The position numbers and the translations under genes are program-made. A DNA stretch of 64,000 bases. It comes from a virus. The DNA lies in IMG/VR virus record IMGVR_UViG_3300021400_000072, one strand, 5' to 3'. The notes beneath the pieces are model-generated. The model made no database searches, was not told where the DNA came from, and worked only from the letters and a program-made list of their open reading frames with translations. Each line of letters opens with the position of its first letter. Within the stretch, counting starts at the first letter, position 1. Positions 31,770 through 33,254 of this stretch are shown piece by piece.

Positions 31770-32900
31770 CGCAAACCAACAATTGACAGATTGTTAAAAC
31801 TTTAACAATCTGTCAACTATAACAATAGATTGTAAAAAATAAAGGTCTTGTTAGTTCTGACTCTAACAAGACCTTTATTTTTATCTAACGTCAATGCCCT
31901 GACTTTTCAGATATTCAATTCGAACAGGAACAGCTTCGTTATAAGTTCTTTCGATGTATTCTTTTAAGTTTCTCATAACATAACTTCTATCGCTTTCCTT
32001 ATAAATTCCAAGTTCAATCATTCTGTCAACCATAGCCTTTTTTGTCATTTTTAACTCCTTTCTCGATCGGTTCTTTGTTTCATTTGATAAATCAATTATA
32101 ACGCCAAAAGTTACATCTGTCAACACTTATTTTAATTTTCAGACTATTTTTTTAATTTTCAGATAACTTTAAAAACCTTTATTTCTAAATATTTTACTTT
32201 GATCCTTTAACGTGTTAAAGTGTGTTATTTCTTTAACAAGCAATAGCATTTTAGGAATGAAAAGATTCTTTAAAATTTTTTCATTTTCCCTCTTGACAAG
32301 TTGACCTCCTGTGTGGTATAATTGTTCGGCCTGCGGCGGCCGCACTGGCTGGTTTTGAATAACAGAGTTTGTTTGTTAAATAACAAACAAACTCTGTTAC
32401 TTTGATGTACTAAAGAACATTGTTAAATTATTAACAATGTTTGTACTATGTTAGATTGTTAATAGTTTAACAATGTTTGTTCTTTATTATTATTATTATT
32501 ATTATTATTATTATTAATTATATTGTTAAACTATTAACAATCAAATGACTTATTTTGATAGTTTCACTCGTTTGGTTGGTCTTGTCTAACTGGCTTGACC
32601 TACCCTTTACCGGTTTAGCGCATTAAAGTCTGTTAAAATTTTAACAAAGAAAATACTAAAATTTATCTTGTTAAAAAATGTTAAATTTTTAACAAGAGAT
32701 GAACAAAACTGTAAGATTGATGTGTTAAAAATTTAACAAAGAAAATACTGTGTTTATATGTGTTAAAATTTTAACAAACTGAAATAGATAGAATTATAAA
32801 TTCCATGTGTTAAAATTTTAACACACGAGATGAATAAAACTATAATTTTACTGTGTTAAAATTTTAACGAATAATAGGCAAAACTTATAGTTCTGTCTAT
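31770..32900. repeat. cluster of TGTTAA-N-TTAACA palindromes/iterons with (TTA)11 microsatellite; candidate origin or regulatory hub
   Basis: GTTAAAATTTTAAC repeated 6 times at 32630-32870 with 35-45 bp spacing; perfect palindromes AACAGAGTTTGTTTGTTAAATAACAAACAAACTCTGTT (32372-32409) and TTGACAGATTGTTAAAACTTTAACAATCTGTCAA (31782-31815); (TTA)11 at 32481-32515; ORF-free about 1.1 kb. Confidence 0.55.
31881..32126 (-). CDS. small hypothetical protein (81 aa)
   Basis: ORF; terminator 31843-31885 (GGTCTTGTTAG..CTAACAAGACC + T-run). Confidence 0.45.
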   Translation of the reverse strand: MLTDVTFGVIIDLSNETKNRSRKELKMTKKAMVDRMIELGIYKESDRSYVMRNLKEYIERTYNEAVPVRIEYLKSQGIDVR

Positions 32901-33254
32901 TTCAGATTTGTGGATTCAGAAATCTGGATACGTGCTGTTGCACTAAAACTCGGCGCGCATTGGCCTGCGCGCGCCGAGCAAAAATACGTAAATACAAAAA
33001 GACCGCCCTAAATAAAATCATACGATTTTTAGGGCGGTCTATTCTACGCAGCGTTTATATTTAGTTTTTTGTCTCTACACAGCATTCCCAAAACTTTTCT
33101 CTCGGTATTAACGGGGGGTGGGTTTTTGGGAAAAAATTTTTTTGATTTTTAAAATTGATTATGGTCTCGACAATCCCTGCACCAAAAATTTTTAAAATTC
33201 TAAATAACGGGAAAATATAAAAACCATTATCGACAATCCCTGCACCAAAAATTT

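Follow-up and report, generated by a model that had tools for sequence, protein, structure and literature searches.

Clustered Rex-type palindromes in the early region of a Bacillota phage as probable operators for a host redox repressor

We analysed a cluster of short palindromes at positions 31770 to 33254 of a 64,000-nucleotide stretch of viral DNA, the IMG/VR record IMGVR_UViG_3300021400_000072; the whole stretch is called the window. The repeated unit, with its flanks, is (A)TTGTTAA-N4-TTAACAA(T). On balance we consider it probable, from the sequence evidence set out below, that the region is a cluster of operators for the host redox repressor Rex, of the type used by Clostridia, carried on a phage of Bacillota. 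For comparison we used three related IMG/VR contigs (L004, L005 and L006) and L072, a contig binned in a Bacillota metagenome-assembled genome (MAG). At the left edge lies a plus-strand promoter, P1 (31716-31745), a perfect TTGACA-N18-TATAAT with a TGTG extension that opposes the surrounding minus-strand genes. It is followed by a 34-bp perfect palindrome with 16-nt arms (31783-31816), the core of which (31791-31808) is a perfect Rex-type box, TTGTTAAAACTTTAACAA, located at about +39 to +56 relative to the P1 start. A bidirectional intrinsic terminator with 20-nt perfect arms (31835-31882) then ends both the P1 transcript and a minus-strand gene of 55 amino acids (31881-32048), which has an AAAGGAG ribosome-binding site and, at 32095-32123 on the minus strand, a perfect promoter of its own. 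The product of this conserved gene retains 74.5% amino acid identity in relatives, and its presence contradicts the earlier description of the region as 1.1 kb without open reading frames (ORFs); the truly non-coding stretch is 32049-33254. The gene is not linked to the array and is replaceable, as L072 has a different gene at that position.

The non-coding stretch contains a palindrome, CTTTAACGTGTTAAAG (32205-32220), of the form CTTTAAC-N2-GTTAAAG, and just after it a weak box with two mismatches, GTGTTATTTCTTTAACAA (32222-32239). Both are upstream of a second plus-strand promoter, P2, and both are kept in L005 and L072. The CTTTAAC-N2-GTTAAAG form is one of two further recurrent motifs of the window, the other being TGCACAAA..CGGGAT; it was found in 18 copies in 12 phage loci compared to 0.2 expected, often adjoining Rex-type boxes. 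P2 (32293-32322), which is kept in L005, L006 and L072, again has a perfect consensus with a TGTG extension, is 77% identical to P1 over 73 nt and reads into the boxes. Its leader (32329-32399) comprises a short GC hairpin and, after it, a perfect hairpin or palindrome of 19 bp (32360-32399). Three perfect Rex-type boxes (32420-32437, 32456-32473 and 32523-32540) flank a (TTA)12 microsatellite of 12.3 units (32484-32521), and the inverted segments 32416-32438 and 32455-32477 pair to form a long palindrome. Beyond these lies an array of six boxes, spanning 32630-32870 and starting at 32630, 32678, 32722, 32760, 32807 and 32853 (38-48 bp spacing). Each box of the array deviates from the 18-bp consensus by one or two mismatches, only at the outermost positions. 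Two tandem minus-strand terminator hairpins (32957-32986 and 33003-33045), which end the transcript of the upstream DUF5758 gene, and a single-copy element on the same strand, termed element X (33112-33270), complete the region. A remote copy of the arrangement is found at 18339-18415 on the plus strand, where a perfect promoter (18339-18367) is followed by a box with one mismatch, TTGTTAAAATTTTAACAG (18398-18415), and then by a terminator.

Allowing up to two mismatches, the 18-bp consensus is matched 18 times in the window compared to 2.13 expected, and 13 of these matches are located in 31791-32870. Four copies are perfect (31791, 32420, 32456 and 32523) and five have one mismatch (18398, 32630, 32678, 32722 and 32760), in addition to several with two. 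Eight of the nine perfect or one-mismatch copies fall within 31791-32870, around two perfect sigma-70-type promoters. The original prediction, which had singled out the region as a candidate replication origin, partition site or master regulatory site at which a helix-turn-helix (HTH) regulator titrates, had listed most of these features. All of them are present far above chance, with small coordinate offsets. The repeat that it emphasised, GTTAAAATTTTAAC, is matched 14 times in 64 kb at up to two mismatches (2.45 expected; none of 100 shuffles reached 14), with 10 of the 14 in 31793-32868, and the exact palindrome TGTTAA-N2-8-TTAACA occurs 11 times compared to 0.22 expected. Relative to GTTAAAATTTTAAC, the six copies at 32630-32870 comprise four exact and two one-mismatch sites, and their start-to-start distances are 48, 44, 38, 47 and 46 bp, not a regular 35-45 bp. 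The long palindromes are shifted slightly, to 31783-31816, 32360-32399 (19-nt perfect arms) and 32416-32438/32455-32477, and the microsatellite, reported as 11 units, is (TTA)12.3 at 32484-32521. The GC hairpin at 32957-32986 is present as described; the T-run that follows it on the minus strand makes it a terminator of that strand. Of the two plus-strand promoters, both perfect matches to TTGACA-N18-TGnTATAAT, the first is at 31716-31745 and the second at 32293-32322, not 32291.

Comparison with the close relatives indicates which parts of this layout are maintained. L004, L005, L006 and L072 keep the same order: the DUF5758 gene, element X, two terminators, six boxes, a spacer, a further box, (TAA)n, two boxes, the 19-bp hairpin and promoter P2. 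The terminator pair lies in a block that is about 92-93% identical to the matching region in relatives. Between the window and L005, the half-site columns of the boxes are 93% identical, the central N4 64% and the DNA between boxes 62%. Since the half-sites are conserved at 93% and the spacers at about 62%, the boxes appear to be the unit under selection. The microsatellite keeps its position and varies in length, with 8, about 22 and about 26 units in the close relatives; it is located at about 7205-7280 in L005 and about 340-365 in L072, is also found in L006, and the contig L004 ends inside it. Arrays were absent from L007-L012, which are unrelated high-GC phages with distant DUF5758 homologues.

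A structured non-coding RNA transcribed from P2, acting as a multi-hairpin sponge for an RNA-binding protein or as a replication primer, would account for a perfect promoter that has no ORF after it and whose transcript would start with a 5' GC hairpin, a feature that stabilises RNAs in Firmicutes. The first 217 nt fold with z = -10.6. The arms of the 19-bp hairpin show compensatory changes in L005 and L072, and the change in L006 retains a G.U pair only on the P2 strand. Low folding energy is, however, an automatic consequence of DNA palindromes, and the half-sites are conserved as sequence, beyond mere complementarity. Relatives do not keep the long stem that would enclose (UUA)n: in L005 one of its arms is missing, and the centres in L072 show no complementarity. 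Arrays elsewhere have no consistent promoter orientation, and Rfam gave no match at the gathering threshold and only chance-level matches at E ≤ 1. We consider such an RNA very improbable as the function of the region.

The features of the box itself point to a DNA-binding protein. Among 549 clustered GTKAA-N4-TTMAC cores collected from phage loci, the outer TT/AA positions were conserved at 79-85% even though they were absent from the search pattern. The central N4 is A/T-rich and is self-complementary in just 56 of the 549. This pattern marks a site for a dimeric DNA-binding protein and not an RNA stem. The box corresponds to a known operator: TTGTTAANNNNTTAACAA is given as the Clostridiaceae operator of the redox repressor Rex (Ravcheev 2012) in those passages of PMC5367854 and PMC9600882 that quote it, and for Clostridium thermocellum Rex the box was confirmed by DNA affinity purification sequencing (DAP-seq) and electrophoretic mobility shift assay (EMSA; PMC8457756). 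The Staphylococcus aureus Rex consensus is TTGTGAAWWWWTTCACAA, with which the outer TT/AA and the A/T-rich centre of the 549 cores agree, and the canonical alternative half-site gives TTGTGAA-N4-TTCACAA. We refer to boxes with the first half-site as T-type and to those with the alternative as G-type. Because the palindrome half-sites are under selection and match the operator of this winged-helix global repressor, the suggestion of a master regulatory site at which an HTH protein titrates pointed in the right direction. The origin and partition parts of that proposal are unsupported.

Boxes of this kind recur in other phages. Tandem perfect T-type boxes (two within 10-40 bp) were found in 48 IMG/VR contigs, compared to a chance expectation of far less than one by a rough estimate from base composition. 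Tandem canonical G-type boxes occurred in 19 further contigs, with arrays that are purely G-type, for a total of 67 viral contigs. In a few phages the two known Rex half-sites, T and G and no others, occur together, and the motif with this G/T alternative spans phages with GC contents from 0.30 to 0.47. The arrays can be extensive, with 11 boxes in an exact 24-bp register in L018 and 11 boxes 20-25 bp apart in L014; L022 has 33 boxes over 12 kb, scattered through almost all of its intergenic regions. T-type tandems were found only 23 times in 596 Gb of bacterial genomes, and several of the contigs that carry them consist of phage DNA akin to the window. True chromosomal tandems, on contigs of Clostridia and Erysipelotrichaceae, are located upstream of genes for a NuoE-like 2Fe-2S hydrogenase subunit, AdhE and a class-V aminotransferase (serC-type), all of which are members of experimentally defined Rex regulons (PMC8457756 among the sources).

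A cultured relative, Enterococcus phage EF1 (MF001358.1; L102), carries five boxes compared to 0.62 expected. All five are G-type, and all fall in the early control region (64.1-70.8 kb), which adjoins the sigma-factor gene and the late operon. The same phage has four near-perfect cre sites for CcpA compared to 0.04 expected. Many copies of AAAATAACA are found at 63.9-70.8 kb of EF1, and the boxes, the cre sites and the AAAATAACA copies all lie in two stretches of non-coding DNA, each about 1 kb long, next to the early/late junction. The variant can be compared with the host in this one cultured case: EF1, which infects E. faecalis, has only G-type boxes, and the window has only T-type boxes. 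Relatives of the window were binned with Clostridia-type MAGs, although binning is weak evidence for a host.

Sites for other host regulators were found in related phage loci (L022 at 1784-2750 and throughout, L013, L041, L028, L002 and L033). LexA/Cheo boxes, CGAACATATGTTCG, occurred 31 times in seven of the related loci compared to 0.4 expected, with up to nine per 12 kb, and one perfect CIRCE element was present. L002 has two perfect parS sites (2453-2512) beside its array, and L033 has 12 perfect DnaA boxes in four triplets (2623-4715). In these related loci the host-type operators usually come after the terminator that closes one cassette and before the promoter of the following one. Sites for LexA, CIRCE, parS, DnaA and cre were all absent from the window itself. 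Given that perfect LexA, CIRCE, parS, DnaA and cre sites stand beside the boxes, the TTGTTAA box too is most economically read as the site of a host factor.

The parS sites of L002 bear on a further explanation, a centromere-like partition site of a plasmid-prophage that would be bound by a ParB, ParR or TubR-type protein. Arrays of short repeats are typical of parC and tubC centromeres, which the cluster resembles, and the box shares its TGTT..AACA ends with parS. The distant relatives Sundance, a Brevibacillus phage, and D-1873, a phage of Clostridium botulinum, encode ParA or TubZ. However, both of these phages have partition genes yet no boxes above chance in the parts covered (first 50 kb of D-1873; 0.2-23 kb of Sundance). 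In the window, parS was not found at up to two mismatches, no ParA, ParB, ParM or TubZ was found among the proteins scanned, and the gene content looks virulent, with neither integrase nor repressor found. We regard a partition site as scarcely probable at all.

The boxes might instead be operators of a phage-encoded master early regulator, with the resemblance to Rex sites a coincidence or mimicry. A precedent is the 15-bp SPBRE element of phage SPbeta, which is found in about 10 promoter regions and is bound by the phage protein MrpR, which has a tyrosine-recombinase fold (PMC10516654). The palindromes resemble SPBRE in being dispersed in early intergenic regions, and the phage group has SPbeta-like late genes. 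Most early proteins are unannotated, which makes a novel binder possible, and in 11 loci arrays are accompanied by members of a 132-amino acid family that has two paralogues in the window. This family is a possible binder of the box; its two paralogues had no matches in Pfam, PHROGs or PDB sequence searches, and an AlphaFold2 model had a mean confidence (pLDDT) of 47 and was unusable. Among the early proteins of the window that were scanned against Pfam or PHROGs, no DNA-binding domain was detected, with HTH, ParB, Rep, integrase-like and Rex domains all absent, and a tblastn search using a Rex sequence as the query found no Rex homologue in the window or the fetched phage loci. Moreover, no protein family is common to all array-bearing loci; the commonest families are neighbouring late genes. 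A phage regulator would also have to account for the exact G/T half-site alternative of Rex across phages of GC content 0.30 to 0.47, for the motif at Rex-regulon genes in chromosomes, and for the unambiguous host operators (LexA, CIRCE, parS, DnaA and cre) that adjoin the boxes. We therefore hold a phage-encoded regulator to be doubtful.

The genome setting was used to place the cluster in the phage programme. Megablast of the region against 50,697 phage records returned zero matches, so no near-identical phage record was found. Distant protein matches are to siphoviruses of about 130-140 kb that infect Bacillota, namely EF1-like phages of Enterococcus, the Lactococcus 949 group and Sundance. 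From 6 to 37.5 kb the window is filled with small minus-strand genes bearing AAAGGAG ribosome-binding sites, and this early block contains 22 perfect TTGACA-N16-19-TATAAT promoters compared to 0.15 expected. Plus-strand late genes begin at 37682 and are long ORFs only when TAG is read as a sense codon, unlike the early genes (18-37 kb), which have no in-frame TAG. The first late gene encodes a phage sigma factor. Because the early promoters are sigma-70-type, the early genes are free of TAG and the late genes start at 37682, the box region sits in the early, host-RNA-polymerase-dependent part of a TAG-recoded phage.

Several other features of the window were recorded. The sigma-factor gene (37682-38794, plus strand) matches family phrog_5767 with E = 2e-48 and has 10 in-frame TAG codons; EF1-like phages, Sundance and Geobacillus phage E3 likewise have a homologue at the start of the late operon. 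With TAG as sense, the plus strand from 37.7 kb is wall-to-wall ORFs, including one of at least 2849 amino acids that runs off the window. TAG is apparently a sense codon at 37682-64000 (plus strand), 7305-11825 (minus strand) and 15416-17877 (plus strand), and no CTA suppressor tRNA was seen in the window. The GC skew is strongly positive at 15000-18000 (maximum +0.52), coinciding with the plus-strand island of TAG-containing genes (15416-17877) within the minus-strand block. A full-length ROOL RNA (RF03087, 280 bits) at 1338-1930 on the minus strand adjoins an array of at least 17 tRNA genes (1-6600, minus strand), and a tRNA at 6324-6395 has an 8-nt anticodon loop ('tttg').

An origin of replication was one proposal of the original prediction. 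It would have an initiator bind the palindromes, the (TTA)n tract unwind, and transcription from P2 activate or prime initiation. Precedents exist in the four palindromic iterons bound by lambda O and in the transcription-activated or primed initiation of phage c2 and of T4 oriF/oriG. The repeated sites are indeed in non-coding DNA next to a 42-bp A/T-only tract into which a strong promoter reads, L014 and L018 are also very AT-rich after their arrays, and the single-copy element X with its direct repeats is 250 bp away. The GC skew that had been proposed as a check shows no inflection at the boxes: the cumulative skew falls steadily through 31-34 kb and reaches its minimum at about 37-38 kb, where gene orientation switches, in a window that is part of a genome. 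The boxes are palindromes and not direct iterons in one orientation, their 38-48 bp spacing is irregular with no helical phasing, and they are also found at 18398 and 31791 and, in L022, as 33 dispersed copies. An AT-only run of at least 28 bp is near only 8 of 42 arrays in other phages, and the A/T-only tract was on that basis rejected as a general companion of arrays. The length of the microsatellite is unconstrained, from 8 to about 26 units. The search for a cognate initiator or ParB-like gene, also proposed as a check, found none among the early proteins of the window that were scanned, and Rep, DnaA, DnaD, helicase-loader and primase domains were likewise not found in these proteins, nor was an initiator, helicase-loader or primase gene adjacent to the boxes. 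With no turn in the skew, irregular spacing, dispersed boxes, an AT tract at only 8 of 42 arrays and no initiator genes found in the window, an origin at the boxes is unlikely.

Element X is the second conserved component of the locus. In the window, about 250 bp from the six-box array, it consists of direct repeats of AAAAAYTTTTGGTRC (33167-33207 and 33230-33270), an A/T tract and CCCAAAAACCCACCCCCC, and its C-run is at 33112-33136. It was found at 12 or more phage loci (the window, L005, L006, L017, L019, L024, L029, L036, L048, L051, L056 and L082). The copies of AAAAAYTTTTGGTRC there number two to five, and they come with an A/T tract and with CCCRAAAMCCCACCCCCC, a C-run that reads as a G-run on the opposite strand. 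Element X is always 100-400 bp from a box array, with constant order and orientation. When contig ends were checked for a cos site, element X and the arrays were mostly internal to long contigs. The element is a candidate cos, origin, packaging or other cis site. If so, the adjoining Rex array could parallel the Spo0A boxes at the origins of phage phi29.

The interpretation of the cluster as Rex operators draws on the consensus match, the selection on half-sites, the recurrence in phages and the use of the box at Rex-regulon genes in chromosomes, together with the lack of a recognisable phage-encoded binder in the window and a variant that fits the host in one cultured case. Rex is known to occupy DNA while NADH/NAD+ is low and to come off as NADH rises. 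On injected phage DNA, host Rex dimers would thus occupy about 11 sites. The boxes behind P1, P2 and the 18339 promoter would obstruct the plus-strand non-coding or antisense transcripts until NADH/NAD+ rises, which would tie early phage transcription to the energy state of the host. One phage genome would carry about as many high-affinity sites as the whole Rex regulon of a host, and 27 Rex sites have been predicted in C. lactatifermentans. Replication of the phage DNA could then soak up Rex and de-repress the host fermentation genes that recycle NADH.

The arrangement of boxes suggests that these two roles are divided. Behind P1 and the 18339 promoter the boxes are at +24 to +56, and behind P2 they begin at +91. 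Local gating may be the better explanation for the single box that follows each of the first two promoters, and for the six-box array a role as a Rex sink would be better than gating. A sink or platform role for arrays is suggested by the lack of a fixed promoter geometry and by arrays in register that have no promoter. Two simpler arrangements were tried and rejected: that each box, together with a -10-like hexamer downstream of it, is one unit of a tandem promoter array (L005 does not keep these hexamers), and that promoters and boxes have a fixed geometry (boxes avoid promoter cores and there is no orientation bias). Nine perfect plus-strand promoters oppose the early genes (18339, 22602, 24630, 25772, 27792, 28643, 31097, 31716 and 32293). 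Most share an upstream inverted repeat, TGCACAAA..CGGGAT..TTTGTGCA, and an 18-nt spacer with TGTG, followed by a GC-rich 5' hairpin, an A-run and the terminator of the neighbouring gene. Their predicted products would be short non-coding or antisense RNAs.

Several observations weigh against the Rex interpretation. The boxes avoid positions -50 to +20 of strong promoters, which classical Rex operators overlap. Promoter orientation is inconsistent, with 20 promoters pointing into arrays and 33 away. No box enrichment above chance was found in C. botulinum phage D-1873 (first 50 kb) or in Sundance (0.2-23 kb). The identification of Rex rests on the consensus match and its context, and the host's Rex and its motif variant are inferred only from the MAG labels of related contigs. 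Proteins of the CRP/FNR type also recognise TGTGA-N6-TCACA-like cores, so that another host factor is possible, and small phage proteins of novel fold could bind the box, most early proteins being unannotated.

The literature search found no report of Rex operators on phage genomes. The sole hint came from B. cereus, in which mutation of rex raises the levels of five prophage proteins. Sites for host regulators on phage DNA are already known from phi29; what would be new here is their use for a redox sensor, and in array form. Taking the related loci into account, we tentatively raise the broader possibility that perfect host-operator sequences, arrayed in non-coding DNA, serve large Bacillota phages as decoys that titrate global repressors, and that the Rex array with element X may gate replication or packaging by NADH/NAD+. 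If this were true, the decoys would include operators for Rex here and for LexA, HrcA/CIRCE, DnaA, ParB/parS and CcpA/cre in relatives, and they could switch on fermentation and NAD+ regeneration, chaperones or the SOS response, or block initiation of host replication, without any phage protein. The Rex array would then be a direct, protein-free link from host redox state to phage development, and the soaking up of repressor a way to re-programme host fermentation. Sensing of the energetic worth of a host by virulent phages is known mainly from the Spo0A case of phi29. The occurrence of the pattern in 67 viral contigs and the cultured pair of EF1 and Enterococcus faecalis make the proposal directly testable at the bench. 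The window encodes an isochorismatase-family protein (13939-14475, minus strand; Pfam E = 7e-27), possibly a nicotinamidase that serves NAD salvage, and EF1 encodes a PnuC-like nicotinamide riboside transporter. A phage interest in NAD metabolism, as these two genes may signal, would fit a connection to Rex.

Compared with the Rex operators of Clostridia and other Gram-positive bacteria, the phage boxes have the same 18-bp palindrome and A/T-rich centre, with the known G-type alternative in other phages, and tandem pairs are also seen at hydrogenase, adhE and serC/serA promoters. They differ in being phage-borne, in their number (10-11 per 1.1 kb here, and 11 in a 24-bp register or 33 per 12 kb in relatives, compared to 1-2 per promoter), and in not overlapping promoter cores. 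In non-coding DNA, iteron-type and lambda origins likewise place clustered protein-binding sites beside an A/T-rich tract into which a promoter reads, but the sites described here are dispersed and unphased, no initiator gene adjoins them, and the skew gives no signal. The datA locus of E. coli is a chromosomal titration locus for DnaA. Clustered high-affinity sites could lower the free regulator here in the same way, and L033 carries 12 perfect DnaA boxes; unlike datA, phage-borne sites rise in copy number with phage replication, and for the cluster titration is a proposal. The closest phage-encoded analogue is SPBRE with MrpR, also a short element repeated between genes in a large siphovirus (about 134 kb) with related late genes; in contrast, no MrpR-like protein was seen in the window, and the motif is that of a host operator. 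The closest known system overall is phi29, a lytic Bacillus phage whose genome has host Spo0A boxes and Spo0J parS sites that control transcription, replication and segregation (PMC2731898). As here, multiple consensus sites for host proteins are located near early promoters (in phi29 also at origins), and parS sites are found in a locus related to the window phage (L002). The proposed factor differs, since Rex senses NADH/NAD+ and Spo0A and Spo0J serve sporulation, and the arrays described here are larger and were recognised from sequence. The phi29 sites tie transcription and replication to the physiological state of the host, and we propose that the Rex-type boxes would do likewise.

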